Of a DNA stretch of 32,000 bases, positions 2,911 through 25,666 are shown one piece after another. The notes under the pieces were generated by a model, which was not told the origin of the DNA, did not search any database, and saw nothing but the letters and a program-made list of their open reading frames with translations. Source of the stretch: Thermoproteus tenax Kra 1 (GTDB lineage Archaea > Thermoproteota > Thermoprotei > Thermoproteales > Thermoproteaceae); assembly GCF_000253055.1 (NCBI RefSeq), contig NC_016070.1:1440001-1472000 (forward strand). Direction: 5' to 3'. Within the stretch, counting starts at the first letter, position 1, and each line of letters begins with the position of its first letter. A program made the position numbers and the translations under genes.

Positions 2911-2938
2911 AAAAATTTTTGATGAAGCCTTTTTATTT
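2911..2938. promoter_or_regulatory. Back-to-back divergent TATA-like boxes in a 32-bp spacer
   Basis: AAAAATTTTT (2911-2920) is centred about 24 nt upstream of the GTG at 2939 on the + strand. TTTTATTT (2931-2938, read as AAATAAAA on the - strand) is centred about 28 nt upstream of the GTG at 2906 on the - strand. Confidence 0.35.
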
Positions 2939-4246
2939 GTGAGCCTAAAAAGAATAATCATCATAATAATATTATTATTAATAGTATTGCTATTATTTAA
3001 AAATATATTACTTATTATATTAATAGGATTTATCATATTATTTTTAAATAGAATGAAAAAATTTATCTCTATATATAGAGAATGGGCCCGTATTAGGATC
3101 GAGATCTTCCTCATATCGCTTGGGGCATTTATTATTTCGTTGTTGTTAAGGCCCAACAACGTTACAGCGAGGCTGCTCGCCCTCCTCGTCGAAGTAGTAG
3201 CATTGTCTATTTCGCCGTTCTATCCTTCCCCCTCTGTAGCGCTATCTCTTCTAGGTTTGGCCATCGAGACGCCTACGGGAGGACCCCTGAGGGTTTCCCT
3301 ATTGATTGTCGCCTCAATTATGGGCTATCTGCTCGGCTCCATGTTTGACAGGGCAGAGATAACTAAGTTAAATATAGGATCTCTTGATATAAAAGATATA
3401 ATAAAGAAGATAAATAATTATAATATTATTATAAAAGATAGAAAAAATTTTTATTTTGTATCAAGAGGCAATAGAGGTAGACGGGACTTTGACGGACCAA
3501 TACTCGTCTGGCTCCCTAAAGAGAATCTTTCGTACAGTTGTAGATCTTTGAACTGCTTGCCCACATCACTACGCTTGGCCACAGCCGAGGAGACTCTGGG
3601 CGAAGATCTATACTTGTTATTTCCCGAGTTAAAGGAGATAAAGAGCCCCCTTGTTGTCTACGCTGAACGGAGCATCGGAAGATCGCTCCTTCGATATTCC
3701 AGTAAGGTCTATGTTCTCTCCAACGGCCAGGCGAACATCACAGTAAATATATCTGAAATACCATTAGAAAAGAAAATAAAAATAATTATAGATATACTCG
3801 AATATTTTTATGGAATAAAAGATAAAGAGATGCCAGGCCTTCTCTATGACTTTTTCACTACGGGGAGAGCCGCCTTTGATAACCCCAATATGTCGATATT
3901 TTTCGACCTCATCAGAGGCCTCGATAGATGGTCCGACGTGCCCGAGATAGTTGAACTTGGCCAAGACCCTAGATCGGTTTTAGCGGCCTTCGCATTGTAC
4001 ATAAAGTATGGTGGAATGGTTGTTACATCGTCCGGTGGCATCTTCGAGCTATTGAGGAGAAACGACGTTAGAGTAGTATTAGTGACAAACAGGAAATATG
4101 ATAAGGCCTCTTCGTTTATTGTGCTCGCCCCCGTCCCGGCGCCGGAGCTCGCAGGTCCCTTCAGCAAGTTCGTCGATAAATTATCCGACGGCGAATACGT
4201 GGGAATAGTAGAGGGCGTGCCAGTACACGGATTTTTAAAGGAGTGA
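2939..4246 (+). CDS. Hypothetical multi-pass membrane protein with ~280-aa unrecognised soluble C-terminal domain
   Basis: The ORF is open from 2831, but it must start after the divergent GTPase gene. GTG at 2939 would add a poly-Ile/Leu segment (IIIIIILLLIVLLLF, ILLIILIGFIILFL) whose codons carry T at position 2. ATG at 3053 (MKKFISIY...) is the conservative alternative. Further hydrophobic helices are IEIFLISLGAFIISLLL, LLALLVEVVALSI and VSLLIVASIMGYLLG. No Walker or other catalytic motif was seen. Confidence 0.7.
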   Translation: MSLKRIIIIIILLLIVLLLFKNILLIILIGFIILFLNRMKKFISIYREWARIRIEIFLISLGAFIISLLLRPNNVTARLLALLVEVVALSISPFYPSPSVALSLLGLAIETPTGGPLRVSLLIVASIMGYLLGSMFDRAEITKLNIGSLDIKDIIKKINNYNIIIKDRKNFYFVSRGNRGRRDFDGPILVWLPKENLSYSCRSLNCLPTSLRLATAEETLGEDLYLLFPELKEIKSPLVVYAERSIGRSLLRYSSKVYVLSNGQANITVNISEIPLEKKIKIIIDILEYFYGIKDKEMPGLLYDFFTTGRAAFDNPNMSIFFDLIRGLDRWSDVPEIVELGQDPRSVLAAFALYIKYGGMVVTSSGGIFELLRRNDVRVVLVTNRKYDKASSFIVLAPVPAPELAGPFSKFVDKLSDGEYVGIVEGVPVHGFLKE

Positions 4247-4258
4247 TTCAGTATTTTC

Positions 4259-6196
4259 ATGGAGAAGGCCGAGGTCAGGGCGGCCGAAAGGGCCGAGGCC
4301 GCCCCAAAGCCCCCTCATCTGGTCAAAGACATCTTGGAGTATCCAGGTGTCAGAGTTGTTCCCTCGCATAGTCTCAAGGCGGTGTGGAAGTACTTCAGAG
4401 AGTTTCCTCACGATATTCTGCCCGTGTTCAGAAACGCCTTTTCGGATTTAATCGAGGGAGTTATATATCCTAACACTGTTCTCTTGCTCAAAGACAAGGC
4501 TGACGATAGACGGGTAGGCGAAGTGGTAAATAAGGCAGTATCAATATCGTTGGGGGCGACTGTAGAAGAGGCATATAAGCTGCTCAGAGACAGGAGGACG
4601 CCTGGCGCTATTGTGTTGGACGACGAGGGGAAGTACGTGGGCATTGTGACCCTCAGAGGCTTGTTGGAGGCCGTAAAACAGATGCAGCCAAAGGCCAGAT
4701 CGGTCAATGCGGTCTATAGCGAGTTTGGCGCAGCTGTTCAGAGAATCGAGGAGAATAGAGATATTGGCGAGATTATGAAGAAGATAGCGGGCGGCGACGC
4801 GGACGGCGCCGTTGTCGTTAACAAGAGGGGGCTTGTGGCCGGCGTCATAACCGTGTGGGATTTCATAAGATCCTCGATCTGGCTTAGACCAAGGAGAGAG
4901 CCAAGGCCGATCTTCGGCAAAGGCGTCTCGAGAGGCTCATCGGCCGAGGCCAAGGCGCCGGCCGCTAAAGCCGTAATGTCGACTGGAGTTCCCATCGTTA
5001 CCCCAAGGACTCCGATAGAGGACGCTGCGCAAGCTATGGCAACGTTAGGGGTCTACGTGTTGCCCGTCGTCGATAAAGACGGCAGGGCCATCGGCGCATT
5101 GACTGCTTTCGACGTGTTGAAGGCATATTTCGAGGGGCCGAAGGAGGGAAGAGAGGATCTGGAGCCCGAGAGACCAATCAAGGGAGCTGAGGAGCTCAAG
5201 CCAAGCGCGTTGGAGCCCAAGCCGGTCAAGTTCGCTACTGGAGTTAGGGCCAGAGATATACTGAGGTCTGACGTACCCACTGTCAGTCTGTTTGACAGCA
5301 TATCCCATATCAGGAGGGTGATGGTGAAGACCGACGCGCCCATTGTGGCTGTGGTTAACGAGGACAGGAAGATCGTGGGCCTTATATCTAGGCGCGATAT
5401 GTTGTTCTATTTGGCTGAGAAGTCCTTGGGATACTGGAAGGTTCAAAAGGGCAAAAAGCTTGTGCTCAAGGAGAACGTAATGCCGGGCGAACAAGCCAAG
5501 CTGTTAAGGGAGGAGGGGACTGCCTCAGACGTTATGAGGGTCGATGTGCCCAAGCTGTCGGCCGACGCCTCGGCTGAAGAGATAGCCTACCATATGCTTG
5601 CGGCAGGGACCGACTATGTGCTAATAGTGGACAACAGCGGCGAGCCCCTGGGCGTGATAACCAGAGACGACTTGGTAAAAGTCTACGCGGAGAGGGGGAG
5701 GGAGGAGGCGACGGTCGCTGAATTGATGAGCCCTGCCGATATAGTGACTGTCACGCCGTTTCACAGCGTATCCCACGTTGTGGAAAAGATGAAGAAGTAC
5801 GAGCTTGACGGTATACTAGTTGTTGAGGGGAGCGATGTGAGGGGCGCCATAGTGGACAACAAGCTTACGTTGACGCCAATAGAGGAGAGCCTGAGAGGCG
5901 AGAGAGTCTTCATAATAACCAGGAGCGGGTCTAAGAAGGGAGGCTCCGAAAGGCTTAGATATCCAAAGGCGAGTCCCCTTACCGCGTCCGACATAATGGA
6001 CGAGCCCCCGCCCACTATAACCGCCAACGAGGCGGCCCGCGCCACGGCGGCCCGCGTCTTGAGACACGGCGTTGTGGCAGTGTTTGACCAACAGGGGAGA
6101 CTTATAGGCGCGTTGACAGGCTTTGACTTAGTCCGCGATTTGGCAAGAGCCTATGCGACCTCCAAGGCTGAGATAGCCAAGAGGGTTGAGGCTTAA
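4259..6196 (+). CDS. Stand-alone poly-CBS-domain protein (at least seven CBS motifs)
   Basis: 645 aa. The CBS strand-helix signature recurs seven times: GIVTLRGLLEAV, AGVITVWDFIRS, IGALTAFDVLKAY, VGLISRRDMLFYL, LGVITRDDLVKVY, RGAIVDNKL, IGALTGFDLVRDL. A Pro/Glu/Lys-rich linker lies near aa 295-325. No other domain was recognised. Confidence 0.85.
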   Translation: MEKAEVRAAERAEAAPKPPHLVKDILEYPGVRVVPSHSLKAVWKYFREFPHDILPVFRNAFSDLIEGVIYPNTVLLLKDKADDRRVGEVVNKAVSISLGATVEEAYKLLRDRRTPGAIVLDDEGKYVGIVTLRGLLEAVKQMQPKARSVNAVYSEFGAAVQRIEENRDIGEIMKKIAGGDADGAVVVNKRGLVAGVITVWDFIRSSIWLRPRREPRPIFGKGVSRGSSAEAKAPAAKAVMSTGVPIVTPRTPIEDAAQAMATLGVYVLPVVDKDGRAIGALTAFDVLKAYFEGPKEGREDLEPERPIKGAEELKPSALEPKPVKFATGVRARDILRSDVPTVSLFDSISHIRRVMVKTDAPIVAVVNEDRKIVGLISRRDMLFYLAEKSLGYWKVQKGKKLVLKENVMPGEQAKLLREEGTASDVMRVDVPKLSADASAEEIAYHMLAAGTDYVLIVDNSGEPLGVITRDDLVKVYAERGREEATVAELMSPADIVTVTPFHSVSHVVEKMKKYELDGILVVEGSDVRGAIVDNKLTLTPIEESLRGERVFIITRSGSKKGGSERLRYPKASPLTASDIMDEPPPTITANEAARATAARVLRHGVVAVFDQQGRLIGALTGFDLVRDLARAYATSKAEIAKRVEA

Positions 6197-6534
6197 TGGA
6201 CGCCAGGACGGCAATAGAGCATAACCTCTGGCAGACGCCCGAGGGCCTCTACTTAAGGCTGGTGGTGATTAGAGATCGTAGCGAGGCATGTAGGGAGAGG
6301 ATGTCCATAGAGGGGATGGACATAGTCTTATACGTCTGTGAGGAGATCCCTTTGAGAGATACAGCTGCCGTGTATAACTTTTTTAAAAATATTGGTATAA
6401 GTAATATTGAATTAATCTACGGTGAAACATCAAGAGTAAAAATATTTAGAATTATTGATAAATATGATAAAGTCCTTGAAAAATTGCTGACGATAGCGAC
6501 ACCGTCAGAGGGGCCTACTTGGGCCAAATCTTAA
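6196..6534 (+). CDS. Small protein, probably YggU/DUF167 (UPF0235) family
   Basis: 112 aa, with a TAATG overlap with the CBS gene. The pattern LYLRLVV ... DIVLYVCEEIPLRDTAAVYNFFKNIGISNIELIYGETSRVKIFRI resembles the DUF167 signature ending G-x-TSR-x-K. This is from memory only. Confidence 0.5.
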   Translation: MDARTAIEHNLWQTPEGLYLRLVVIRDRSEACRERMSIEGMDIVLYVCEEIPLRDTAAVYNFFKNIGISNIELIYGETSRVKIFRIIDKYDKVLEKLLTIATPSEGPTWAKS

Positions 6535-7455: not shown

Positions 7456-7457
7456 AA

Positions 7458-7478: not shown

Positions 7479-8528
7479 GTGCAGTTTAAAATCCCCTACA
7501 TATACTCCTCGGAGGAGTTGGAGAGGTACTTTCTGGGAGTCTACAAGACGACTGAGGCGAAGAGCCCCTCCGTTGAGACCGGATTAGAGCGTTTGAGGCG
7601 ACTTGAGATCGCTAGAGTGATGAAGTCGGCCCAAGCTCTGGGCTCAGCGCTTAAAGAGATGGCAGTAGCTATGCCCTTTGTCGGCGAATTGCACCCGTTC
7701 TATAAGGATCTACTGGATCTCTATATAGGGCTCAACAACTACAGACATGCTTTGGCCAAGATCGGAAGGGCCACCTCCGCCGTTAGAGCAATATCTAGGG
7801 AGACGTTGATATCGCTTAAGACGGCCTACAGCAAAGGGCAAATATACAAGATAAGGAGGGCCTATATAGGTAGAGCGACTGATCTAATAAGAGACTTGGC
7901 TCCAGAGCTCAATACGGCGAGAGAGGCTGCCGTATTCTTCAGAAAGCTTTACGACATAGACCCAGAGCTCTTTACTGTAGTTGTAAGCGGCGCGCCAAAT
8001 GTTGGAAAGAGTAGTCTCGTGGGATGTATGTCCACAGCTAAGCCCAAGGTGGCCGAGTATCCATTCACAACGAAACAGATACACGTAGGCCATATATTCG
8101 TGAGGGGCGACAGAGTCCAAGTCATAGACACGCCGGGCCTTTTGGACAGGCCTTTCCAGGAGATGAATAGGATAGAACAACAAGCGGTCTTAGCCCTAAG
8201 ACACCTAGCTAAGGTGATAGTCTTCTTAGTCGATCCATCACTCCATAGTGGTTATGATATAGAGATCCAATTAAAAATATATAATAATATTAAAAGTAAT
8301 TTTAATATACCTATAATATTAGTAATAAATAAAATTGACCTAATTAATAATAAACAGATAATAAAGGATATAGAGAAGCTTTTCGGCGCAGAGCCGCACA
8401 CTATATCGGCCAAAGAGTGTCGTGGGACTGAGGAACTAAAGGAGCTAATCCTCGAGAAGTTTTATGTGCCCTACGCTCTGGAGAGGCTCAGACGCGCCGT
8501 CTATGAGCGACGAAGCCGATCCCGTTGA
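7479..8528 (+). CDS. NOG1-family GTP-binding protein
   Basis: 349 aa, GTG start. A helical NOG1-type N-terminal domain is followed by G1 GAPNVGKSS, G2 FTT, G3 DTPGLLDRP and G4 NKID (8328-8339). Confidence 0.85.
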   Translation: MQFKIPYIYSSEELERYFLGVYKTTEAKSPSVETGLERLRRLEIARVMKSAQALGSALKEMAVAMPFVGELHPFYKDLLDLYIGLNNYRHALAKIGRATSAVRAISRETLISLKTAYSKGQIYKIRRAYIGRATDLIRDLAPELNTAREAAVFFRKLYDIDPELFTVVVSGAPNVGKSSLVGCMSTAKPKVAEYPFTTKQIHVGHIFVRGDRVQVIDTPGLLDRPFQEMNRIEQQAVLALRHLAKVIVFLVDPSLHSGYDIEIQLKIYNNIKSNFNIPIILVINKIDLINNKQIIKDIEKLFGAEPHTISAKECRGTEELKELILEKFYVPYALERLRRAVYERRSRSR

Positions 8529-9573
8529 CCGACACAGTTATAGGTTGAGACTCTCGGACCGAAAAACGCACGCCTAGAATCTTCTCTACTATGTAAATAT
8601 TTGTCAACATGTGTTGAGTAGCTGACGATACTGAGACTCTGCTTTGGCCGTCGGCCAATGCCATGAACGGTATTATCATATCGGCCATGTGGGAGTCCAA
8701 GGCCGCCCCAGATGATATCTCTCTGAGCAACTTTTCAGCGGCCTCTCTTCCGACAATCTCGGCGGATTTACCCCTTTCCCCAAGGCTGTCTGAGCCAAGG
8801 ATGAACCCTCTATCGGTCTCGGCCCATAGCACTATGCCCGACCCAGGTCCTAGACCATCTCGTCTATATTCCACCGATATCTCGACCGGAACGCCGAAGC
8901 CGCTGAGCGTCTCTTTGGCGGCCCTTGCCTGCCGCTCGGCCACGTGTTCCGGGAGATTAACTGCGTGGGAGATACCTCCGATTCTCACCACTTCACCTCT
9001 AACAATCCAGTCGAAGGCCGGTATCTTAGCCACAGGCTCTACGACGACCTCTATGATGCCGCCGCCTTTTGGATAATGGCCTCGCCTCTTGAGGCTCACT
9101 GCGATATTGGCCCCCAACCTGGCTAGAAGCTTGGCGACTACATGGATGAAGTAGTCCACAGGCGGCGCCATGGGCACATCTGTTCCGCCTTTGATAACCA
9201 CCTTAGATCTACAGGGCGCGTACATCAACACAGGAAGGAGGGACTGGAGCACTAATACGACGCTGCCTGCTGTGCCTACATCGAAGAGGAACTCGCCACA
9301 TTTTATTGGGCCCGGCCTAAAGGCGAGATGCATAGATCCGATACTATCTCCTTTAACTTCGGCGTTGGCCACGGCGGCGACTGCTCTTACTGCCGTTAAG
9401 TGTTGATGTTGCAGTCCGGGGTTCTTCCTCCTAGCTCTTATGTTAGTAACCTCAACGGGCACGCCTAGGAGCGCCGACATCGATAGGGCAGTTCTCAAGA
9501 TCTGACCCCCGCCCTCTCCGTAGGAGCCATCGATTACTATCGGCTCCACGCTATATTTTGTTTTATTAAACAT
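8488..9573 (-). CDS. rtcA: RNA 3'-terminal phosphate cyclase
   Basis: 361 aa with GSYGEGGGQILRTALSMSALLG, RARRKNPGLQHQHLTAV and the His region DSHMADMIIPFMALA. An in-frame GTG at 9549 would give an N-terminus closer to the homologues I remember and would free 9550-9590 as promoter space. The 3' end overlaps the NOG1-like gene by 41 nt. Confidence 0.9.
   Translation of the reverse strand: MFNKTKYSVEPIVIDGSYGEGGGQILRTALSMSALLGVPVEVTNIRARRKNPGLQHQHLTAVRAVAAVANAEVKGDSIGSMHLAFRPGPIKCGEFLFDVGTAGSVVLVLQSLLPVLMYAPCRSKVVIKGGTDVPMAPPVDYFIHVVAKLLARLGANIAVSLKRRGHYPKGGGIIEVVVEPVAKIPAFDWIVRGEVVRIGGISHAVNLPEHVAERQARAAKETLSGFGVPVEISVEYRRDGLGPGSGIVLWAETDRGFILGSDSLGERGKSAEIVGREAAEKLLREISSGAALDSHMADMIIPFMALADGQSRVSVSSATQHMLTNIYIVEKILGVRFSVRESQPITVSVNGIGFVAHRRRV
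9561..9568 (+). promoter_or_regulatory. TATA-like box for the ACD-alpha gene
   Basis: TTTTATTA is centred about 26 nt upstream of the ATG at 9591. It lies within the first annotated codons of the maximal rtcA ORF. Confidence 0.4.
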
Positions 9574-9590
9574 TATTATCTACTGGCTGC

Positions 9591-10985
9591 ATGGAACTTG
9601 AGAGCTTGTTTTTCCCCGACTCTGTGGCGGTCGTGGGAGCTTCACCGAGATCCAACTCAGTGGGCTACGTGATCTCAGTCCAGCTACTGAGGAGATTCAG
9701 AGGAAAAGTTTATTTAGTTAATCCAAACTATAATGAAGCAATTATAAATAATATTAATGTAAGATTTTATAAATCAATATTAGATATAAACGATAAAATA
9801 GATCTAGCAGTCGTCGCAGTACCCTCGCGCTATGTCCCTGACATTATGAGAGAGTTGGGAAAACACGGAGTCAAAGCCGCCGTGATAGTAAGTGGCGGAT
9901 TCGCCGAAGTTGGCGAAGTCGAATTGGAGGAATATGTAGTAAAAATAAGTAGAGAGTATGGCATACGTATCTTGGGCCCGAACTGCGTGGGAGTTTTCAA
10001 CGCCCTGAACGGGCTTGACACTATGTTTCTGCCCGAGGAGAAGGCCAAGAGACCTGCCGGCGGCCCTATCGCGTTCATCAGCCAGAGCGGCGCCGTGATG
10101 ACGGCTGTTTTAGACTGGGCAGCTACAGAGGGCGTAGGAATAGGAATAGCGGTAAACGTAGGAAACAGAGCCGATATAGGCGAGGGAGACATCTTAAATT
10201 ATTTTAAAGAACTAGATTTCATAAAAGTTGTTGGAATATATCTTGAGGGGTTTAGAAAGAGAGAAGAATTACTATCATTTATGAAAGCAGCTAAATCTAT
10301 ATCATATAAAAAACCTCTAATTATCTATAAGGCTGGCCGAAACCTTGAGTCTTCCAGAGCCGCGCTGTCGCACACAGCAGCTCTGGCAGGCAACTACGAG
10401 TACTACAGAGCCCTCTTCGCCCAAGTGGGCGCCATAGAGGCACACGATCTGATAGACATGTTCGATATATCTCAGGCAATGGCCCTCTTGCCTCCGCCCG
10501 AGGGCAAAAGAGTGCTCGTAGTAACTTCGTCAGGCGGGATAGGGGTACAATCCGTCGACGCCCTAGTAGAAAATGGCCTTGAAGTGCCTCCTACGCCCAG
10601 AGAGATGAGGGAGGAGCTTAAGACGAAGCTATCGCGCTTAGTCTCTCTATCTAACCCAATCGACCTTACGGGCAGCGCGACCGATGAAGATTTTAAGGCC
10701 GTCCTGGAGGTAGGAGCTAAACATTTCGATGCGATATTGGTAGGAGCTTTAATACATCCGCCGGGGTTGAGCGAGAGGTTAGCCGAGTATATAGTCGACG
10801 TCTTGAGGTTGGGGAAACCCATCGTGGCCGTCAGCCTCGGCGGCTCACCTCAGGTCAAAGAGCTGGAGAATAGGTTGAGGGGCAAAGTGCCCGTCTATAA
10901 TACGCCGAGGCGGGCCGCGAGGGCCCTCGGAGCATTGTATCGCTATTACTCTTTTAAACAGAGGACGAAGAGATCAAGCGCATGA
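9591..10985 (+). CDS. acdA: ADP-forming acetyl/acyl-CoA synthetase, alpha subunit (CoA-binding plus succinyl-CoA-synthetase-like domains)
   Basis: 464 aa. The N-terminus is a CoA-binding Rossmann fold (SVAVVGAS ... VYLVNP ... DLAVVAVP). The phosphohistidine loop is ALSHTAALAG. The sequence is collinear with Pyrococcus-type ACD alpha as I remember it. Confidence 0.8.
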   Translation: MELESLFFPDSVAVVGASPRSNSVGYVISVQLLRRFRGKVYLVNPNYNEAIINNINVRFYKSILDINDKIDLAVVAVPSRYVPDIMRELGKHGVKAAVIVSGGFAEVGEVELEEYVVKISREYGIRILGPNCVGVFNALNGLDTMFLPEEKAKRPAGGPIAFISQSGAVMTAVLDWAATEGVGIGIAVNVGNRADIGEGDILNYFKELDFIKVVGIYLEGFRKREELLSFMKAAKSISYKKPLIIYKAGRNLESSRAALSHTAALAGNYEYYRALFAQVGAIEAHDLIDMFDISQAMALLPPPEGKRVLVVTSSGGIGVQSVDALVENGLEVPPTPREMREELKTKLSRLVSLSNPIDLTGSATDEDFKAVLEVGAKHFDAILVGALIHPPGLSERLAEYIVDVLRLGKPIVAVSLGGSPQVKELENRLRGKVPVYNTPRRAARALGALYRYYSFKQRTKRSSA

Positions 10986-11758
10986 TAGCGTTGCTCACAG
11001 ACTTTGGAACAAAGGACTACTTCGTGGCCGAGATGAAGGCCGTCATATACTCCGTAAACCCGAAGGCCAGGATCGTCGATATAACGCACGAGATACCGCC
11101 TCAAGACGTCTACACCGGCGCATTTGTTTTATGGAGATCTTACAAGTGGTTCCCGAGCGGCACTATATTTGTCGCCGTCGTTGATCCCGGCGTCGGCTCA
11201 GCGCGTCTTCCTCTATTAATAAGAACCAGACACTATTTCTTTATAGGACCTGACAACGGCCTCCTCAGCTTGGCCGCTGAGGAGGACGCGGTGGAGAGGA
11301 TATATAAGATTACGGCGAGTTTGTCTCATAGGTCGAGCACCTTCCACGGCCGCGACGTTTTTGCATATGCAGCGGCGCTGTTATCGAGGGGCGTTGCGCC
11401 CAACTTCTTGGGGGAAGAGATCGCCAATTTTGTGAGGCTAGAGAGACCCAGCGCCACAATAAAAGACGGCCTAGTCTACGCTAAGGCAATATATATAGAT
11501 AGATTTGGAAATATTTATACATCTATTACAAAAGATATTATATATAAAATTGCAAAAATTAACGATGAATTATGTATTAAATTTTATGATAAAGAATTTA
11601 GGGCAAAGTTCCTTGAGACCTATAGCGCCGCCCCTCCGGGTGCGCTAGTGGTATTAGTGAACAGCGAAGGCTTTTTGGAGATTGCCGTCAATAGGGGCAA
11701 CGCATCTGAGGAATTGGGCCTAACAGCCGGCGCAGATCTAGTGCTCTATAGATGTTGA
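10982..11758 (+). CDS. SAM hydroxide adenosyltransferase / DUF62 (chlorinase-fluorinase-like) family protein
   Basis: 258 aa, with an ATGA overlap with acdA. Motifs: IALLTDFGTKDYFVAEMKAVI, VAVVDPGVGS, IGPDNGLLS, STFHGRDVFAYAAA, IYIDRFGN. Confidence 0.85.
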   Translation: MIALLTDFGTKDYFVAEMKAVIYSVNPKARIVDITHEIPPQDVYTGAFVLWRSYKWFPSGTIFVAVVDPGVGSARLPLLIRTRHYFFIGPDNGLLSLAAEEDAVERIYKITASLSHRSSTFHGRDVFAYAAALLSRGVAPNFLGEEIANFVRLERPSATIKDGLVYAKAIYIDRFGNIYTSITKDIIYKIAKINDELCIKFYDKEFRAKFLETYSAAPPGALVVLVNSEGFLEIAVNRGNASEELGLTAGADLVLYRC

Positions 11759-11937
11759 AGCGCCTCCTTCAGCACGCGGCATATCTCATCTAGCGGCACG
11801 CCATCGCGCAACATCTGAATCACTAGTAGCCCGACCACAGCCGGCGAGTCTACCCTTAATCCGACAGCCTCATACTCTCTTCCTCCCACATTAGCCCTTA
11901 TTTTAATGGTGCCCCCCTCTTTGTCGACCGAGATCAT
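11746..11937 (-). CDS. Hypothetical 63-aa protein
   Basis: It lies 21 nt downstream of the DUF47 gene on the same strand and overlaps the DUF62 3' end by 13 nt. No family was recognised. Confidence 0.4.
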   Translation of the reverse strand: MISVDKEGGTIKIRANVGGREYEAVGLRVDSPAVVGLLVIQMLRDGVPLDEICRVLKEALQHL

Positions 11938-11958: not shown

Positions 11959-12618
11959 TTAAATTGTGGATATTATAGATATGAGCAACTGCACGGCATC
12001 TTGCGCGTTGTCGGCTATCTTATCCGCGCTATATATCAGTGAGATTATGTGGTTGAACTCAACCGCAGATAAGGCGAGTTGGTATACTTCGTCGAGAATG
12101 TATTCCTTTATTTCATCGACTTCCTCCTCCAGCGTGCTGACGATCCTCGCATATCTGCTACAGAACTCTAGATCCCTACTTCTATCGAGAATAAGGCCAA
12201 TATATTCAATGATAGTTTTATCTAAATCCAACATTTCTTTGAATTTTCCTATAATTATTTTTCTTATATTATCATTTTTCCAAACTCTATATCCACGCTT
12301 TATCTCTTTAGAGATATAGTAAATATTGTCCAATATATTGTCTATTCTATCCAAGAGAAGCTCGGCGCTACCCATAATGCTGGGAACCAAAGCTCCCTTA
12401 GTTATATTGTCGTCGAGTTTGCGTATAATTTCATCGCCCTCCCTCTCTATCGCTGCAATCTTTCTGACAATTTCGTCTAAATAGACCTCATTAAGCTCTG
12501 TTTCCTTTAGGATCTGTTCTAAAAACTCAATGGACTGATGAGAGTAGCCTATGTGAGCCTTCAGACCTTCTACTATCTCGTCCCAACCTGAAGTGAACCA
12601 CCGCTTCAGTATACTCAC
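11959..12618 (-). CDS. DUF47 / PhoU-related (YkaA-like) helical protein
   Basis: 219 aa, GTG start. It is a duplicated helical repeat with IEREGDEIIRKL ... LLDRIDNILDNI in the first half and EEEVDEIKEYIL ... ADKIADNAQDAV in the second. This pattern is typical of DUF47/PhoU-like proteins. Confidence 0.6.
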   Translation of the reverse strand: MSILKRWFTSGWDEIVEGLKAHIGYSHQSIEFLEQILKETELNEVYLDEIVRKIAAIEREGDEIIRKLDDNITKGALVPSIMGSAELLLDRIDNILDNIYYISKEIKRGYRVWKNDNIRKIIIGKFKEMLDLDKTIIEYIGLILDRSRDLEFCSRYARIVSTLEEEVDEIKEYILDEVYQLALSAVEFNHIISLIYSADKIADNAQDAVQLLISIISTI

Positions 12619-16528: not shown

Positions 16529-17473
16529 ATGGGAGATCACGTGTCTATTGTGGCGTTGATTGAGCTTTATAACTCGCTGGATAAGTTAGATCTAAGAGTA
16601 TTGAGGGTCTTAGAGGTGGCGCACTCCAGATACCAGTATGTTCCCTACAAGCTTATAGTTAAGTATATGGATGCCGACGAGAGGAAGGTCGGTCTGGCGC
16701 TATCTAAGCTCAACAAGCTCAAATTAGTACAGAGGGCTAAGAGCTCATATGAGGGGTACAGATTGACTTTCAACTCTTATGACATATTGGCAATTCATAC
16801 TTTAAGGAAGGCTGGGAAGCTGTTATCCCTCTCGCCTACGCCCATAGGAGTAGGCAAGGAGTCTGTGGTATACGCCGGCGAGACCCCGAGCGGCCTTAGA
16901 GTGGCCGTCAAGCTCCATAGGACTGGCACATCCTCTTTTGTTCATGTAAGGAAGTTGCGTATATTTCTGGGCAAGAGGAGGCATCTAACTAGGCTGTATG
17001 AGGCCAGACTCTCGGCCTATATGGAGTATGCGGCGTTGGATGCTATCTTCAGCGAAGGCGGCAGTGTACCGGAGCCTATAGCGTATAATAGACATGCGGT
17101 GGTCATGAGGTATGTGGACGGAATAGAGGCCTATAGGGCTGCGGAGGTGTCCGATGCTTATATAGACGACGTTAAACAGACTATGGAGATTGCTCTGCGC
17201 AACGGCATTATCCACGGCGATCTTACTCCCTATAATATACTGTTAGGCGACAGAGCCTATGTTATCGACTGGCCTCAGTGGGTGCCTGTCACGCATCCAA
17301 ATGCTAATGATATTTTAAATAGAGATTTATATAATATTTATAATTATTTCTCTAAATTTAATAAGAAAATAAATATAGAAGAAATATTGAATATATTTGA
17401 TCGAGTAAAAGAAAGTATGACGATCAAGGCCAGGTTGAGCGAACTGGTGCACAAATTTATCGAGAGCTTATGA
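16529..17473 (+). CDS. rio2: Rio2-type atypical serine protein kinase with N-terminal winged-helix domain
   Basis: The winged helix is YQYVPYKLIVKYM ... LSKLNKLKLVQR ... YEGYRLT. Kinase motifs are IGVGKESVVY, VAVKLHR, IIHGDLTPYNILL and VIDWPQ. The track ORF starts at TTG 16496. ATG 16529 and GTG 16541 are the plausible starts; the latter lies 24 nt from the TATA-like AAAATTTATT at 16512-16521. Confidence 0.9.
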   Translation: MGDHVSIVALIELYNSLDKLDLRVLRVLEVAHSRYQYVPYKLIVKYMDADERKVGLALSKLNKLKLVQRAKSSYEGYRLTFNSYDILAIHTLRKAGKLLSLSPTPIGVGKESVVYAGETPSGLRVAVKLHRTGTSSFVHVRKLRIFLGKRRHLTRLYEARLSAYMEYAALDAIFSEGGSVPEPIAYNRHAVVMRYVDGIEAYRAAEVSDAYIDDVKQTMEIALRNGIIHGDLTPYNILLGDRAYVIDWPQWVPVTHPNANDILNRDLYNIYNYFSKFNKKINIEEILNIFDRVKESMTIKARLSELVHKFIESL

Positions 17474-19236
17474 GGATCCTCGGCCTTGATATAGCGCCTC
17501 AAAATAGATTCGCCTATACGATCGTCGAGGATGGAAAGCTGATTGACCAAGGATACGCCGAGGCGCCCGCCCTATTGAAGGTAATAAAGGATCACAAGCC
17601 TGGAGTAATAGCATTGGACAGTCTGTCCGAGTTGGTAGAATACGGTAAAATAATAATAAAGGCCCTGGGCCATCTCCCCTTCAATATAGACGTAATCGAG
17701 GTAACGAGGGAGGCCAACGCCAGTGTTCCCACGGAGGTCTTAGTGAGGAGGAATTTCGGTATCAATAGGGACAAACTGGACCCTCTGGAGACATCATACT
17801 ATCTGGCCCTATTGGCTGAAAAAGGTGTCGGAGCCAGAATAAAGCTCTTTGAGGAGGAGACCATAATCCTAATAAAAAGGAGGACCTCCACGGCGCCGGG
17901 CGGTATGAGCAGAAACAGATACATGCGCAACATAAAACACAGAATAAGAGAGCTCGCTGAGAAGATATCTAGGCGGCTCGATGAGGCCGGCTTTGATTAT
18001 GATCTATTCTTCAAGGAGGAGTCGGGGGATGTCTCTTCGGCTAAGTTCGTGGTATATGCAAGAAGAGATCTTGTGAGGAGATTCGTCAAGCCCATGAGGG
18101 CCTCGGATGTAGTAGTCACAGTATATTCTGAGCCGGCGAAGCGGTATGGACAAGAGAGAAGCGATTTACACGTGATAGTTGGCATAGACCCAGGCATCGT
18201 AACCGGTCTCGCCATAGTGGACTTGAACGGTAGAGTCCTGCACACCGAGGCGAAGAGGAATTTATCGAGGGGCGAGGCGCTGAGGAGGATCTACCAATGG
18301 GGGATCCCCGTAGTCGTAGCAACCGACGTAACTCCTCCACCTGAGTATGTCAAGAAACTTGCGGCTATGTGTGGGGCCGTAGTCTACGCGCCCGATAGAG
18401 ATCTTGCGGTGTCTGAGAAAAGCGCGATAGTGGAGAAGATAAACTATCCGACATCAACAACGCACGAGCGAGACGCGCTGGCCGCTGCATATAAAGCTTT
18501 TTATGAGTATAAAGATAAATTCAATAAACTAGAAAAAGACTTTAAAGTAATATTAAATGATAAACTATTAGAAAAAGCAAAAATATTAATAATAAAAGGT
18601 AAACCAATAGCTCAAGCCGTCGCAGAAGTCCTTAAGATGTCGTACGACACCGAGAGGACTAAAATCGTGTATGTCCCAATAGAGAGACCGTGTAGAGATC
18701 AAGACGAGAATCTAAGGAGGAGGATAGCCGCTTTGGAGTACGAAAAGGCGCAGTTAGAGAAAGAGCTATATGAACTGAGGGAGAGGCTATCTTCGTTGTC
18801 GAGAGCGTTGACCGATTCGCTGTGGAGAGACTTTAAATATAGAGAACTACAAAGACGTATAGAAGATTTAACAAAATCAATAAATGAATGTGAAGAAGAA
18901 AAAAATAGAATAATGGAAAATATTATAGAAATAATACAAGGCCTACTTAGCGGGAGGTATAAGATGTACGATGAGAACGATATTGTAGAGTGTAGAAAGA
19001 CAGGCGCCGGGGCTATATGTAGGGACTTAGCCAACTTGGAGGACGCGGTGAGATCGGGCATAATGGGCGTACCAGTAAATTTAGTATTAAGATATAAAAT
19101 TGGAACATATTACATAATAGATGAATTGAAAAGAAAGGAATTATTAGAAAAAATTAAAGAACAATATTATAATAAGGAAATTGATTTAAAGAAGATAATT
19201 GAGGAATACAGAAGGCGCCTCCCAGACCTAAAATAG
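17470..19236 (+). CDS. DUF460/COG2433-like protein: two RNase H-fold (RuvC/YqgF-like) modules plus long coiled coil
   Basis: 588 aa, with an ATGA overlap with rio2. [10 protein letters not shown] at the N-terminus and [20 protein letters not shown] near aa 225 resemble the first strand of RuvC/YqgF-type nucleases. Heptad-rich Glu/Lys/Arg/Leu segments span about aa 410-480 and 550-588. Confidence 0.7.
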
Positions 19237-20439
19237 GCTTACCTTGCCCTCTAGGACCAACTGAGTTATCCCGGTCACTCTGGCGAGCTCCTCTGCGGCT
19301 ATCGCCTCTATTTCTCGCTTCATCTCGCTCGATACGACGCCGCCCTCTGGTATGAGTTCAACGTTGAGTATCTTGGGCTCAGTAATGGGTCTACCTATCT
19401 GGCTGACGACCTCCACGGAGACTTCGACTACTCCCTTGACTTCTTTGTATATTCTGTCGGCGATTTTCTGGGCCAGTATATTATATATCTTGCCCACGTG
19501 CGATACAGGATTCTTACCCGCCGCCGCCTCCATGGACATTACTCTCATGGGCGTGATTAGGCCGTTTGCCCTGTTACCTCTTCCGGTCATGCCGTCATCT
19601 CCATGCTCGGCGCTTGTTCCAGTCACAGTTAGATAGTATATGTTGTGCTCGGGTTTGTCGGCCGTATTGACGTCCACCGATACGTTGTAGCCAGGCGCTA
19701 TCTTAGATGCTAGATCTTCCACCCTCCTTTTGACCTCCTCCTTAACTGAGAGATAGTGGTCTTTATCTTTTACCAGAGAGCTTATCATGGCCGCAGCTAT
19801 GGTTATCTTGACGTCCCTTTCCACTCTCACGCCCATAACCTTGACGTCCTCGCCCACCTCGGGCAACCTTGACTTAAACTCTGCTGAGTTTAGAGTTCGC
19901 TCAATTTGATAAACTAGAGTCTCGAGAGTAGAGAGAGGAGCATAGCCCACTCCAATAGACGTATCATTGGCCAGAGGTATGGACTTGGCGCCTAAATCGT
20001 ATACGCCCGTGAGATCGGCCGAGCCTTGCCCGATTCTATAGTCGATGACTACGTGTCTCTCCGGGTCCAAGAAGCGGAAGTGGTCTCTTATCCACCTCTT
20101 TGCGGCCTCAAGGATGATGGGACCTATGGGGACCTTCTCGGTCTCGTTGCCCCTCCTCACCTCGACAGTTGCTCTGCCGGATACAATTATATAAATCGGC
20201 TGAATGACCTCGCCGCCGCCAAAGACAGGCCTGGCCTGTCCGCCGACTACTAAAGTCTTATCTAGGTTGTGGTGAAGTATAAGGCCGTACTTCTTTAGGT
20301 AATAATTGGATAGGAAGACGCTGGCGTACTCGGAGATACCGTCAGCTATATAATCGGGGTGTCCAACGCCCTTTCGCTCTACGATCTCCACACGTTGTTG
20401 TTCAACAGGTATTCTGTTGGCCTTTGTTACTGTTATCAT
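19228..20439 (-). CDS. mat: S-adenosylmethionine synthetase, archaeal type
   Basis: 403 aa with [34 protein letters not shown] and [18 protein letters not shown]. These are typical of archaeal MAT. Confidence 0.95.
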
Positions 20440-21400: not shown

Positions 21401-21921
21401 TGACCCTCTGTTGTTTGTTGTCTTAATAACTTCTGCGCCTCTTTCCATTTGTTCCAAGCCCTTGGATCTATCAAGCTCCATAGCTCCTCCAACGTAATAT
21501 ACTTATACAGAGGCTTAGCCCTTATGAGTGCATCGGGCACTCGGTATACCTCTCCGCTTAGATCTTGGGGTCTGGACAGGTAAACCCTCAAACGTTTCAA
21601 GGCCGATCTACCCCTCTGTTTCTTGTACTCAAGCATATCTCTTACTATCCTCTTGAATATCTTGTCAGGCCTCCTCGGCACTTTTGGCCCTACTTTCTCT
21701 GGGTTATAGTGAGTCCTCCACTCCGAGACCTTCCTCATGTACCATCTGACTACCATCTGCCTATCACCTACTATTACAGCCCTATCTATATTTATAACCA
21801 CGACGCTCACGTCAGGCCTGCTCTGGAGCAATTTTGCAATATAGCTTGCCAGCCTGCCTACAACATGATTGGTAGCGTCAATGACTATTGTGCCCTCGTT
21901 CGACCTCGCGGGCCCAGTCAT
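21397..21921 (-). CDS. rpl13: 50S ribosomal protein L13 (uL13)
   Basis: 174 aa with VIDATNHVVGRLASYIAKLL ... VVVINIDRAVIVG ... IFKRIVRDMLEYKKQRGRSALKRLRVY. Confidence 0.93.
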   Translation of the reverse strand: MTGPARSNEGTIVIDATNHVVGRLASYIAKLLQSRPDVSVVVINIDRAVIVGDRQMVVRWYMRKVSEWRTHYNPEKVGPKVPRRPDKIFKRIVRDMLEYKKQRGRSALKRLRVYLSRPQDLSGEVYRVPDALIRAKPLYKYITLEELWSLIDPRAWNKWKEAQKLLRQQTTEGQ

Positions 21922-22286
21922 ATTACTATCTTGACGCGGCTCCCTTTGGGGTTTCTTCTTACAAGTTCTGGAATCGACACAAGTTCTCCGCCGGCTCTTA
22001 ATACGGACTCTGCCGCCGATTTCGTTGCGCTGAGCACAGCCACGGTTACTCTCTTTTCCAATTTACCTGCGCCGAGAAGCTTGCCTGGGATGACAACTAT
22101 ATCGCCGTCGGAGGCTAATCTATCGACTTTCCCAATGTTGACCGCGACGCGCCTCCTCCTGGGTCTTTCTATTAATTCTGCGAGATACGACCATATAGGC
22201 GCATCGTTCTTCCTAGAGGCTATCCTCAGAAATCTAACGAGCGTCCTCAGCCTCATATCAGTGGGGCCTGTGGGATTAGGCGGCAC
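21918..22286 (-). CDS. rpl18e: 50S ribosomal protein L18e (eL18)
   Basis: 122 aa, GTG start. RPRRRRVAVNIGKVDRLASDGDIVVIPGKLLGAGKL ... VAVLSATKSAAESV. ATGA overlap with L13. Confidence 0.9.
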   Translation of the reverse strand: MPPNPTGPTDMRLRTLVRFLRIASRKNDAPIWSYLAELIERPRRRRVAVNIGKVDRLASDGDIVVIPGKLLGAGKLEKRVTVAVLSATKSAAESVLRAGGELVSIPELVRRNPKGSRVKIVI

Positions 22287-22305
22287 GCCGTCTCTTATCG
22301 AGATA

Positions 22306-22313
22306 TATTTAAA
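22306..22313 (-). promoter_or_regulatory. TATA-like box for the L18e-L13-S9-rpoN unit
   Basis: TTTAAATA on the - strand overlaps the rpoD stop codon and is centred about 24 nt upstream of the GTG at 22286. Confidence 0.5.
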
Positions 22314-23154
22314 CGTTCTCAGCTTTAGAGCCCTCCTCTACGGCTGTAGCCGATGCTCTATTTACGACCTCTCTCTCTAGCGATTCTAGGAACGTACTGA
22401 ACTTGACTTTGAGTACGCGGAATGTCTCTTTCAACATATCATTAATACTCATGTTGCCATACGATTCAAACATCATTATATATTTATATTTATCCCAATC
22501 AACAATTAAAATTCCATTACATAAACTTTCACATGTCTTTAATTTTCCAAAAGTACACTGATATAGATCGACCTCTTTGAGCGTATTCCCAAACGCCTTT
22601 GGACATACATTTTTACATATTTTGAGACAGTTCTCGTCATCCTTTACGATGGTTACTTTGGGGAAATAGTAATATGTGGCAAGGCCGGCCTGCCATTTGG
22701 CGTGCTCCCTCGCTCTGCCAAGACGCGCATAAGCCTCTATAGAGATCGATTGGCCCTTAGCCAACTTCACTATGGGCATCTCGGGATATACCGGCTTGAC
22801 TCCAGGATGCTCCGAGATTAGATCGCCTGCATACACAGTCCTGGCCTCTTCAGCAGTGACTTGGAGAGTCAGCCTTACGGTACATTCGGCTGGGTCAACC
22901 AGGCCGCTCTCACACTCCTCAATCTTGGGGAACTCGCCCAACGGGGTAGTTAGAGGAATGAGCCCGATCCTATGGGCCAACATCTCGTCGTACATAGACG
23001 ACGTGTTGTTTATTATAATAACTTGATCTACGGCGAAGACTGGGACTTCTGATATTACTGCGCGTCTTATGGAGTTTACGAGAGAGGGCTTGGCTCCCTC
23101 TATATATGCCCTCAGCCGTAGATTATCGCGCTCTAAGACCTTTGCGTGAGGCAT
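22309..23154 (-). CDS. rpoD: DNA-directed RNA polymerase subunit D (Rpo3)
   Basis: 281 aa. NSIRRAVISEVPVFAVDQVIIINNTS ... DEMLAHRIGLIPL, plus an internal Cys-rich (Fe-S-type) insertion CLKICKNVCP ... CTFGKLKTCESLC. The ATG overlaps the S12 TAA by 1 nt. Confidence 0.93.
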   Translation of the reverse strand: MPHAKVLERDNLRLRAYIEGAKPSLVNSIRRAVISEVPVFAVDQVIIINNTSSMYDEMLAHRIGLIPLTTPLGEFPKIEECESGLVDPAECTVRLTLQVTAEEARTVYAGDLISEHPGVKPVYPEMPIVKLAKGQSISIEAYARLGRAREHAKWQAGLATYYYFPKVTIVKDDENCLKICKNVCPKAFGNTLKEVDLYQCTFGKLKTCESLCNGILIVDWDKYKYIMMFESYGNMSINDMLKETFRVLKVKFSTFLESLEREVVNRASATAVEEGSKAENV

Positions 23155-24422: not shown

Positions 24423-24468
24423 GTTTGATCCCCCTTGTTCAGCCAATACAATTAGAATAATACTTAAG

Positions 24469-24515
24469 AAAAAAATTAATTATAAAATTTCTTTCTAGTA
24501 AGATTTATTAAAAAA
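24469..24515 (-). terminator. Oligo-T tracts downstream of rpoA2 (candidate archaeal intrinsic terminators)
   Basis: On the - strand there is a T6 run (24510-24515) and a T7 run (24469-24475), 12-58 nt after the rpoA2 TAG. They lie inside a ~100-bp AT-rich spacer. Confidence 0.4.
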
Positions 24516-24526
24516 TATGTTATTTA

Positions 24527-25666
24527 CTAAAATTGCATTAAAAGTTTTACCATACCTGTCCCTATCGGGATATGCCTGCCCGCAATTATGTTCTCAAAGA
24601 CCCCTCTGAACGGCTCTACATCGCCTTTAGTCGCAGCCTCCACTAACGTCTTTACGGTCACCTCAAATGCGGCTCTGGCCAACGGCGACTCCTTGGAGCC
24701 CACTACGCCGTGTCTTCCTATTGGTCTTACCTTGCCCAGCCAAGTCATAGCATCAGCGATCATATACATGTGTCTCACATCTACGTCCAGACCTTGGTCT
24801 ACCAAAACTCGCCTGATTTCGGACATTATTAAAGTTCTAGCGACCTCTATGCCTAATACTTCGGCGACTTCGTGTAGATCGTTGCTGTAAGTCCTCGTGT
24901 AGTCCACCTCCTCCAATTGGAGAACGCCCTCGAGGTTTGTGCCCTCAGTTACTATATACCACTCGCCAGTGTTTCTATCTTGATCAACTAGAACTTTCCT
25001 GATGCCCTTTATTCCACTGATTCTAGTTTGTAATACTTTATCTTTTAATTTTCTTATTTTTAACATATCTGGCATATTAATTTTTATATAGATAAAATTA
25101 TTTTCTAGCTCCACTGTAACGCCCTTCCCGCGCATTCGTGATAGTGCCTTCTCAATGTCTTTGAGCGAGATGCCTCTATATTTAAGCTGTTCTTGATCCA
25201 ATTCTATTGTTATAGTGTATGTGATATAATCTATATCTACTGATTTTGCAAGGCTCTCTATAGTTGTCAACTGTATCTTTTTCGCCACCTCGGTAGCCGA
25301 TTCTTTGGACTTATTATAGGGCGGTTTAAGGTACACATACATGAGAGGCGTCGACGGCTTTCTTCTGGCGTCAACGATCTCGATCATTCTCGGAAGTCCG
25401 CGTGCCATGGAGAACTCTCTGAGGCCCGCGAAATGGAAGGAGCGCAAGATCATCTGTGTCGACGGCTCGCCTATTGATTGAGCCGTTATAATGCCAATGG
25501 CCTCGCCTGCGTCAATCAGCGATTTTATATATAGCCTTAGAGCTCTATATATAATCTTTAGAGCAGTCTCTTCATCCAAGCCCTCGATCGACTTCTTCAG
25601 CTCCTCATAAAGCGACTTCGGAATAACCGAGGAGACGTCCTCGAGTATTTGAGCCGCAGACATCAC
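24527..25666 (-). CDS. rpoA2: DNA-directed RNA polymerase subunit A'' (Rpo1C)
   Basis: 379 aa with AIGIITAQSIGEPSTQMILRSFHFAG and the C-terminal GVFENIIAGRHIPIGTG. ATGA overlap with rpoA1. Confidence 0.95.
   Translation of the reverse strand: MMSAAQILEDVSSVIPKSLYEELKKSIEGLDEETALKIIYRALRLYIKSLIDAGEAIGIITAQSIGEPSTQMILRSFHFAGLREFSMARGLPRMIEIVDARRKPSTPLMYVYLKPPYNKSKESATEVAKKIQLTTIESLAKSVDIDYITYTITIELDQEQLKYRGISLKDIEKALSRMRGKGVTVELENNFIYIKINMPDMLKIRKLKDKVLQTRISGIKGIRKVLVDQDRNTGEWYIVTEGTNLEGVLQLEEVDYTRTYSNDLHEVAEVLGIEVARTLIMSEIRRVLVDQGLDVDVRHMYMIADAMTWLGKVRPIGRHGVVGSKESPLARAAFEVTVKTLVEAATKGDVEPFRGVFENIIAGRHIPIGTGMVKLLMQF

Follow-up and report, generated by a model that had tools for sequence, protein, structure and literature searches.

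Short AT-rich islands set in frame within genes of Thermoproteus tenax and its close relatives

The locus and its AT-rich islands

We analysed a window of 32,000 nucleotides from the genome of Thermoproteus tenax Kra 1 (NC_016070.1, positions 1,440,001 to 1,472,000), in which short and extremely AT-rich patches, here called islands, lie within genes for RNA polymerase subunits, a NOG1-family GTPase, a Rio2 kinase and other proteins. The 80-bp sliding G+C profile of the window is bimodal and contains exactly 16 low-GC segments, at the coordinates given for them in a first-pass annotation that a model had made from the letters alone; with boundaries refined by a two-state hidden Markov model (HMM), the islands measure 83-168 bp, have 12.4-23.4% G+C where the remaining sequence has 51.7%, and account for 5.8% of the window. 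Windows of 80 bp with less than 27% G+C formed 22 runs, compared with a mean of 0.15 and a maximum of 5 in 200 first-order Markov simulations. The same annotation had described abrupt boundaries, lengths near 100-120 bp and frames kept open in all islands but one, and each of these features was recovered. Across 103 boundaries from the clade introduced below, 10-bp bins are flat at 0.50-0.55 G+C on the outer side and at 0.12-0.19 on the inner side, a step without a shoulder, and the 63 islands of the clade have a median length of 111 bp (24 of them 100-120 bp, maximum 226 bp). In the window, 15 of the 16 islands lie within long stop-free frames, in which a stop would be expected by chance in about 1 codon in 10 at such AT-richness; the only one not inside a frame (24445-24549) takes up the RpoA''/L30e spacer and the last and first codons of both genes. 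The HMM also agrees that the regions at 4.3-6.3, 12.7-17.2 and 25.2-32 kb are free of islands.

The compositional shift extends to all codon positions. G+C at the first, second and third codon positions (GC1, GC2 and GC3) is 24, 14 and 12% inside the islands of the window and 55, 40 and 60% outside, and the shift is seen in every two-fold and four-fold codon family; AAA:AAG, for instance, is 52:10 inside and 102:213 outside, and GAA:GAG is 28:3 inside and 92:330 outside, which confirms the synonymous preference noticed at the start. The residues I, K, N, Y and F, toward which a shift in amino-acid content had likewise been reported, account for 58% of residues inside the islands (I 21%, K 14%, N 10%) and 22% outside. 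The non-coding spacer within the island at 24445-24549 has 11% G+C, equal to the GC3 of the coding islands, and islands in relatives span gene junctions, such as that of Rio2 and DUF460, or the start of pyrH in strain AZ2. From GC3, the composition of the spacer and the islands that cross gene junctions it follows that the cause acts on DNA and not on protein, as the annotation had argued; in the same sense, the peptide of the PhoU_div island is conserved down to Pyrobaculum and is encoded with a GC3 of 25% in T. tenax vs 82% in Pyrobaculum. At four-fold sites on the sense strand of the coding islands of the window, A stands over T at 39:19, vs 484:489 outside, and this strand asymmetry is not explained by amino-acid constraint. 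In addition, homopolymer runs of at least 7 are depleted relative to codon-shuffled controls in the coding islands of all six species (48 segments, 5,310 bp), with 2 A runs vs 12.5±2.9 and 0 T runs vs 3.6±1.6, a sign that slippage, or oligo-T signals for termination on either strand, may be selected against.

The relatives used for comparison were a Logan assembly (L001), the metagenome-assembled genome (MAG) KC_019 (L002/L005, hereafter KC), two MAGs of one species (L003 and L008), an uncultured Thermoproteaceae MAG (L004), Thermoproteus sp. CP80 (L006) and Thermoproteus sp. AZ2 (L007), the last of which is largely non-syntenic. Pfam domain matches pass through island-encoded residues in the genes of the NOG1-family GTPase, SAM hydroxide adenosyltransferase, PhoU_div, Rio2, DUF460, RpoD and RpoA''. 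Along the window, island 1 (2910..3077; 168 bp, 14.3% G+C) occupies the N-terminal membrane segment of the open reading frame (ORF) 2831-4246 (+), beginning 4 bp past the start codon of the divergent YchF-like GTPase gene 1707-2906 (-), and L001, KC and L003 have an island in the same alignment columns. The mechanical start of this ORF, TTG at 2831, overlaps the YchF-like gene on the opposite strand, and orthologues of the membrane protein begin only near T. tenax VSLKR (~2942), so that the first third of island 1 is probably a non-coding, divergent promoter region. The same ORF contains, in frame, two islands found only in T. tenax, island 2 (3359..3461; 103 bp, 12.6% G+C; orthologous segments 43-64%) and island 3 (3744..3826; 83 bp, 15.7%; orthologous segments 54-72%). 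Island 4 (6373..6485; 113 bp, 18.6%), in frame in a 112-aa ORF (6196-6534), is also confined to T. tenax, and its orthologous segments are collinear with 44-55% G+C. Island 5 (8252..8372; 121 bp, 13.2%) lies in the NOG1-family GTPase gene 7479-8528 at a position common to T. tenax, KC, L003, L004 and L006; it encodes the G4 motif NKID at 8328-8339, as had been claimed, with the frame checked by hand.

Two islands fall in the ACD-alpha (CoA-binding) gene 9591-10985. Island 6 (9704..9800; 97 bp, 14.4%; aa 39-71) encodes core beta strands of the Rossmann-like domain, and the GC3 of this segment is 0.06 in T. tenax, 0.00 in L001, 0.30 in KC, 0.73 in L003 and 0.64-0.79 in outgroups. Island 7 (10194..10330; 137 bp, 23.4%; aa 202-247) is found only in T. 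tenax, with a GC3 of 0.15 vs 0.63-0.80 in six other genomes, and its segment is a folded helix-strand-helix-strand unit in the predicted structure (predicted local distance difference test score, pLDDT, 89-96). In this AlphaFold2 model of ACD, with a mean pLDDT of 90.3, the island segments reach 89-97 and have regular secondary structure; both islands are accordingly predicted with confidence to encode folded core strands and helices. Just outside the gene, 28 bp of 7% G+C (9552-9579) separate ACD from the divergent RTC gene and probably serve both as a promoter region. The same stretch encodes the N-terminal MFNKTKYS of the T. tenax RTC ORF, an extension that no orthologue has, so that the real RTC start is probably the downstream V(E/Q)P codon.

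Farther along, the SAM hydroxide adenosyltransferase gene 10982-11758 contains island 8 (11488..11600; 113 bp, 14.2%); KC has this island at full length, L001 and L003 have part of it, and L004 and L006 lack it. Island 9 (12199..12350; 152 bp, 21.7%), in the PhoU_div (DUF47) gene 11959-12618 (-), occurs in each of the six species, always from the same start but with differing ends, and the orthologous segment of P. neutrophilum has 49% G+C and a GC3 of 82%. Island 10 (17305..17418; 114 bp, 13.2%) lies at the C-terminal end of the Rio2 kinase gene 16496-17473 and ends 52 bp upstream of the DUF460 start codon; all six species have a counterpart, but it is shifted, and the island of the others spans the Rio2/DUF460 junction. 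The DUF460 gene 17470-19236 holds island 11 (18489..18597; 109 bp, 14.7%), which is specific to T. tenax (orthologous segments 42-60% G+C), island 12 (18832..18936; 105 bp, 19.0%), common to T. tenax and KC only, and island 13 (19076..19200; 125 bp, 16.0%), partly common with KC. Island 14 (22464..22546; 83 bp, 19.3%), in the RpoD (Rpb3-like) gene 22309-23154 (-), is also partly common with KC; its existence was correctly noted before, but the extent of 22431-22570 given to it was too wide. Island 15 (24445..24549; 105 bp, 12.4%), the sole mostly non-coding island of the window, combines the 75-bp RpoA''/L30e spacer (11% G+C) with 7 codons at the end of RpoA'' and 2 at the start of L30e. Island 16 (25020..25104; 85 bp, 14.1%) lies in the RpoA'' (Rpb1 domain 5) gene 24527-25666 (-).

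Distribution and turnover of the islands

The loci of all relatives contain islands of the same type, at 2.3-5.4 per 10 kb. Together, 63 islands were found in ~155 kb from seven species (4.1 per 10 kb), which by extrapolation amounts to several hundred to ~900 islands per 1.84-Mb genome. No intragenic island was found in ~82 kb of four outgroups, namely P. neutrophilum, a Pyrobaculum MAG and a more distant Thermoproteus MAG (21.4 kb each) and Thermocladium (17.8 kb), in which AT-rich stretches are short intergenic promoter regions only. The T. tenax spherical virus TTSV1 (AY722806, L016; 20,933 bp, 49.5% G+C) likewise has no island, and its G+C is unimodal, with zero 80-bp windows below 20%. 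The islands are restricted to the Thermoproteus tenax clade. Among the outgroup stretches, those at 9843-9979 of L014 (between divergent genes) and 4598-4668 of L009 are 70-137 bp long with ~16-17% G+C, so that an island-like composition, as an intergenic feature, may be older than the clade. Synteny is broken near NOG1 in two relatives: compared with T. tenax, the pyrH-to-NOG1 block is inverted in L001 (1-7503) and NOG1 alone is inverted in L003 (7767-8801).

A tree of six species built on protein columns outside islands places T. tenax as the sister group of the remaining five. Every species with data has an island at four positions (the N-terminus of the membrane protein, NOG1, PhoU_div and the C-terminus of Rio2); five positions are occupied in T. 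tenax only, two in KC only and one in L003 and L006 only. The comparison with sister genomes that the first-pass annotation had recommended separates positions common to the clade from lineage-specific ones. Because they are nested in the tree, the two KC-only islands and the L003/L006 island read as clear gains, and island 6, which is present in four species and not in L003/L006, is most simply read as a loss. In addition, the boundaries of shared islands overlap but differ. Density is therefore conserved although positions turn over: as species diverge, patches are gained, shift, shrink and are probably lost. In shared islands, third positions are identical at 0.716, vs 0.667 expected from composition (outside, 0.503 vs 0.427), and nothing in these islands is conserved beyond composition. 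Amino-acid identity is 0.66 inside shared islands vs 0.77 outside, and it falls from 0.77 to 0.54 in columns where one of two species has an island; none of the nine genes with at least 78% amino-acid identity contains an island.

More than 90% of island bases are in coding DNA. Ordinary spacers have 41-57% G+C, and islands cover 7.8% of non-coding vs 4.9% of coding DNA, a 1.6-fold difference, indicating that release from coding constraint alone does not make an island. No enrichment was seen at start codons (-150 to +30; 5 of 16 islands vs 4.1±1.7 by random placement) or at gene ends (4 islands vs 3.9±1.7). TATA-box-like words are abundant in the islands, as had been pointed out, but they do not exceed codon-shuffled controls of equal composition: composites of the B recognition element (BRE) and TATA box numbered 9 in sense and 1 in antisense orientation, vs 12.6±3.5 and 5.2±2.3. 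A promoter role in general was thus ruled out, for want of enrichment in either position or motif, although islands 1, 10 and 15 may double as promoters. A terminator role was also rejected, given the lack of 3'-end enrichment and the depletion of long T runs. Islands show no helical periodicity of 10-11 bp, which removes curvature or nucleosome phasing, and the lack of conservation past composition removes a sequence-specific binding site. When islands were searched by BLAST, a check proposed with the original description, only orthologous islands matched, with no non-orthologous match above 20 bp; the window has no real repeats and its islands are single-copy, and a mobile element or repeat family was ruled out since only orthologous islands match each other. 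A structured RNA was discarded because Rfam returned no family at threshold in the window. No reverse transcriptase occurs among the ten window ORFs run against Pfam, all of them ordinary cellular proteins or unmatched, in a survey that included no dedicated reverse-transcriptase search.

Origin in place and possible causes

In protein and codon alignments, each island replaces a segment of normal G+C in island-free relatives residue for residue, with no length difference from the orthologues. The first-pass annotation had held that the islands are not insertions, and this is borne out by the collinearity with orthologues and by the Pfam matches that run through islands; an insertion or low-complexity insert was ruled out by the collinear alignments and the structure model. 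For ACD, the polarity of change was set by outgroup DNA, and a control segment has a GC3 of 0.59-0.87 in all genomes. In islands found only in T. tenax, 111 of 170 ancestral G/C sites changed to A/T (65%, background 18.6%) and 4 of 151 ancestral A/T sites changed to G/C (2.6%, background 11.6%). A-T interchange is not raised (6 of the 151 island sites vs 172 of 6224 background sites, 2.8%), and the ancestral A/T base is kept at 141 of 151 sites. The islands hence arose in place, via directional replacement of G/C by A/T. Over all species, these G/C-to-A/T changes in islands comprise 431 transitions and 106 transversions, a ratio of 4.07 vs 3.09 in the background (Fisher p=0.016); the excess of transitions is small (1.3-fold) and, with 20% transversions, far from a deaminase signature, and pure deamination was ruled out by this ratio. 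Recent hypermutation was set aside because 0 of 49 single-nucleotide polymorphisms (SNPs) between near-identical genomes fall in an island, a test of low power given the few G/C sites left there.

The opening temperature of naked, relaxed DNA was calculated from nearest-neighbour parameters with an internal-loop penalty at 0.1-1 M monovalent salt. Internal bubbles are predicted to open at 77-91 °C in the 16 islands vs 93-108 °C in other 111-bp windows, so that by calculation the islands are ~16 °C less stable than the rest. The growth optimum of T. tenax is 86 °C and its maximum 96 °C (PMC3189178), and the calculated opening range of the islands brackets the optimum. The earlier suggestion that the islands are hot spots for DNA melting agrees with this calculation, which is the one line of evidence for it.

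We favour, with a probability of about 40%, the explanation that the islands are composition-defined, thermally labile elements, which an AT-directed fixation bias maintains within the limits of protein tolerance. A local fixation bias toward A/T would reflect selection or transmission drive on a physical property of the duplex, with no motif involved, and thermal lability would be the favoured property. Purifying selection on proteins would set where the patches sit and which codons keep G/C, and such a filter would lead islands to avoid the most conserved genes and would keep motifs like NKID. That the bias lies in fixation and that lability is the property under selection, we infer. Candidate uses would include the relief or buffering of torsional stress, a chromatin boundary, and a site at which DNA uptake, recombination or enzymes that open the strands could begin; any such use is a proposal drawn from composition and the thermodynamic calculation. 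It is possible, though doubtful, that the islands constitute a new class of element coded by composition, with several hundred patches of ~110 bp that melt, or nearly do so, and are kept by selection or drive. In one version of this idea, the patches would act as entry or uptake signals in DNA exchange and recombination and would have spread through molecular drive, in the single crenarchaeal lineage for which DprA and ComF are reported. In another, they would be passive thermo-topological buffers: islands are 2-6% of the DNA and, if opened, would impose an equal change of superhelical density on the rest of the chromosome, of the same magnitude as physiological supercoiling.

The most serious rival, which we consider unlikely, is a self-reinforcing local mutation bias, in which an AT-rich segment breathes at 86 °C, is damaged faster through cytosine deamination, guanine loss or oxidation, and grows more AT-rich up to a stable endpoint of ~12% G+C. 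The islands would then be neutral or mildly harmful scars, bounded by protein tolerance and clade-specific via a change in repair or chromatin. Such a process would account for the bimodal composition with few intermediates and step-like edges, for G+C at the coding floor with a GC3 equal to spacer G+C, for the clustering of islands in weakly constrained genes and segments, and for the lack of sequence conservation and of a motif. It would also fit a predicted opening temperature near the growth temperature, and a ~15-fold rise of the G/C-to-A/T rate fits the substitution counts; moreover, the shared PhoU_div island begins at the conserved peptide DRIDNILDNIYYISKEI, whose codons are intrinsically AT-rich and could serve as a natural seed. 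However, single-strand damage should produce mostly C-to-T changes, and the observed spectrum, with its ratio of 4.07 vs 3.09 and its 20% transversions, is close to background. Ordinary non-coding DNA should not have stayed at 41-57% G+C with only a 1.6-fold enrichment of islands, a virus replicating in the same cell is island-free, and so are hyperthermophiles of the same family with similar G+C. Runaway damage offers no obvious reason for the narrow size mode of ~111 bp, as frayed edges should spread, and none of the 49 recent SNPs lies in an island, weak as this test is with few G/C sites left. We prefer a fixation bias to runaway mutation because of the background-like spectrum, the lack of a raised A-T interchange and the narrow size mode, together with the GC-normal spacers, the island-free virus and a density that is conserved despite turnover.

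The remaining explanations are far less probable. A function in RNA or translation, in which ~37 AU-rich and unstructured codons would serve as an entry site for an RNase or RNA-binding protein or would change the rate of translation, is improbable; it would suit the coding location of more than 90% of island bases with hardly any preference for non-coding DNA, the excess of A over T at four-fold sites and the avoidance of long A and T runs, but islands extend across start and stop codons and take in an entire intergenic spacer, their positions are unlinked to gene ends and fall mid-domain in folded proteins, ATA, AGA and AAA are common genome-wide so that no clusters of rare codons result, and positions turn over between orthologues, unlike a folding-linked pause. 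Protein-level selection for segments rich in I, K, N, Y and F, with DNA composition as a by-product, draws on the strong shift in amino-acid content and is very improbable, since synonymous sites shift equally (GC3 12 vs 60%, and 25 vs 82% for a conserved peptide), a non-coding spacer has the same composition and orthologues work with ordinary residues at the same positions. Equally improbable are short gene-conversion or transformation tracts from a low-GC donor, which the annotation had listed as an alternative. The size of the islands is tract-like and their edges are sharp, but a diverged donor would differ at many A/T sites, and the retention of ancestral A/T bases, with almost all changes running from G/C to A/T, excludes a foreign source; the peptides encoded by islands are AT-shifted forms of sequence native to the clade, and only orthologous islands are matched by BLAST. 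The GC3 of 0.00-0.15 in islands does not exceed the genomic mean of even the most AT-rich archaea known to us. In favour of a donor, T. tenax is reported to have DprA and ComF, as the only crenarchaeote so reported (PMC3189178). An assembly, sequencing or in-silico artefact, also raised in the annotation, is the least probable of all, and nothing was found in its favour: the public T. tenax ACD-alpha protein is 100% identical to that of the window, islands included, frames, motifs and Pfam matches are intact, and the T. tenax genome was Sanger-sequenced (PMC3189178), while islands of the same kind recur in six other species from independent short-read assemblies, so that Sanger and Illumina data, isolates and MAGs agree. 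L003 and L008, separate MAGs that were assembled independently, share the same set of islands at a sequence identity of 99.7%, which excludes an artefact.

Several points weigh against maintenance of the islands by a fixation bias. Their G+C is at the coding floor, and a threshold trait should hover near its threshold. A very strong mutation bias from G/C to A/T would also give few A/T-to-G/C changes, via rapid reversion, and substitution counts alone therefore fail to tell the two biases apart. The calculation leaves aside chromatin proteins, polyamines, Mg2+ and positive supercoiling by reverse gyrase, all of which oppose opening in vivo; chromatin, polyamines and reverse gyrase would shift the opening temperatures of islands and of other DNA alike to higher values. 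The comparison with a virus involves one genome, and the inferred losses follow from parsimony only (for island 6, two steps vs three). Spacing is clustered and irregular, with gaps from 240 bp to >7 kb and several islands per tolerant gene, which speaks against an evenly spaced architectural role, and a neutral process under protein tolerance predicts the same pattern.

If the islands are maintained elements, a DNA-level requirement would override coding at hundreds of sites, among them RNA polymerase subunits and the nucleotide-binding motif of a GTPase, and helix stability, a physical signal, would convey genomic information in a novel manner and would add a new factor to the means by which hyperthermophiles manage duplex stability. 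If they are scars instead, they would provide a natural example of a bistable, position-heritable mutation bias at 100-bp resolution, and what keeps prokaryotic G+C above its mutational equilibrium would become testable within single genes. In either case, gene finders, codon-usage models, detectors of horizontal transfer and phylogenies from these proteins would be misled by the islands.

Comparison with known systems and other features of the locus

Full-text literature searches found no published description of the islands, and the paper on the T. tenax genome notes no more than three extended regions with under 47% G+C (PMC3189178). The closest functional parallel is offered by the uptake signal sequences and DNA uptake sequences (USS/DUS) of Pasteurellaceae and Neisseriaceae, with the reported DprA and ComF genes as the evidence for a putative competence of T. 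tenax. A small genome contains hundreds to thousands of USS/DUS (1,471 in H. influenzae), many of them intragenic; they shift the peptide content of the proteome and are kept by fixation bias, not mutation (PMC2817400). The islands resemble them in density, in tolerance-dependent placement and in turnover, with 4.1 islands per 10 kb, none in genes of at least 78% identity and a lower identity inside islands. However, USS/DUS are specific motifs of 9-12 bp, whereas the islands are ~110 bp long and defined by composition only, with no conservation past composition and no words shared by non-orthologous islands. A physical parallel is offered by DNA unwinding elements, sites of stress-induced duplex destabilization (SIDD) and base-unpairing regions, which are AT-rich stretches of ~100 bp or more defined by low helix stability and not by a motif; by calculation the islands share this property, opening at 77-91 vs 93-108 °C. 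Known elements of this kind are intergenic and few (origins, promoters, terminators and matrix attachment regions) and act under negative supercoiling, whereas the islands are mostly intragenic, occur about once per 2-4 kb and belong to an organism that bears reverse gyrase.

We found no known mechanism that fits, and the islands lack the defining properties of repeat-induced point mutation (RIP) and kataegis, diversity-generating retroelements (DGRs), uptake sequences, isochores, xenogeneic islands, promoters and low-complexity inserts; the defining property they do show is the low stability of unwinding elements. Isochores and GC-biased gene conversion (gBGC) are similar in that a regional shift in fixation moves synonymous, non-synonymous and non-coding sites and amino acids together, but they extend over tens of kb to Mb, whereas the islands, at a median of 111 bp and a maximum of 226 bp, are on the 100-bp scale, prokaryotic, directed toward A/T, step-like and subject to turnover. 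RIP and kataegis similarly produce dense, local and directional G/C-to-A/T change and AT-rich blocks in a GC-normal genome; they consist of near-pure transitions, target repeats or single-stranded repair intermediates and destroy genes, whereas the islands contain 106 transversions beside 431 transitions, are single-copy and leave 15 of 16 hosts as intact long frames. The targets of xenogeneic silencers (H-NS, Lsr2/CgpS) share a sharp drop in G+C that a nucleoid protein could read and a proneness to spurious transcription, but they are horizontally acquired and kb-sized; the islands are native patches of 110 bp in vertically inherited core genes, collinear in six species and the outgroups, with ancestral A/T kept. 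The Asn/Lys-rich segments of Plasmodium and Dictyostelium also show how AT pressure rewrites proteins toward N, K and I, but these are insertions, mostly disordered, in AT-rich genomes, whereas islands replace residues one for one without a length difference in folded proteins (pLDDT 89-97 for the ACD segments). BRE/TATA promoters should lie upstream of genes, and neither the positions of the islands (5 of 16 vs 4.1±1.7 at random) nor the counts of BRE-TATA words, equal to those of codon-shuffled controls, depart from expectation. A DGR was ruled out, as the window holds no template repeat: there is no non-orthologous island match above 20 bp and no real repeat.

A few other features of the analysed loci are recorded here. 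On KC locus L002, a 100-N scaffolding gap at ~19960-20061 splits the SAM synthetase gene into two called genes, and on the AZ2 contig L017 a region of ~5 kb (7861-12845) is without called genes. In the window itself, two long antisense ORFs were observed, one of 310 aa at 14683-15615 (+) opposite the EndoV/FAD-synthetase genes and the other of 271 aa at 21565-22380 (+) opposite the L13/L18e genes. Both have translations rich in Ser, Pro, Leu and Thr and, as judged without a homology search, resemble shadow frames of GC-rich DNA rather than genes.

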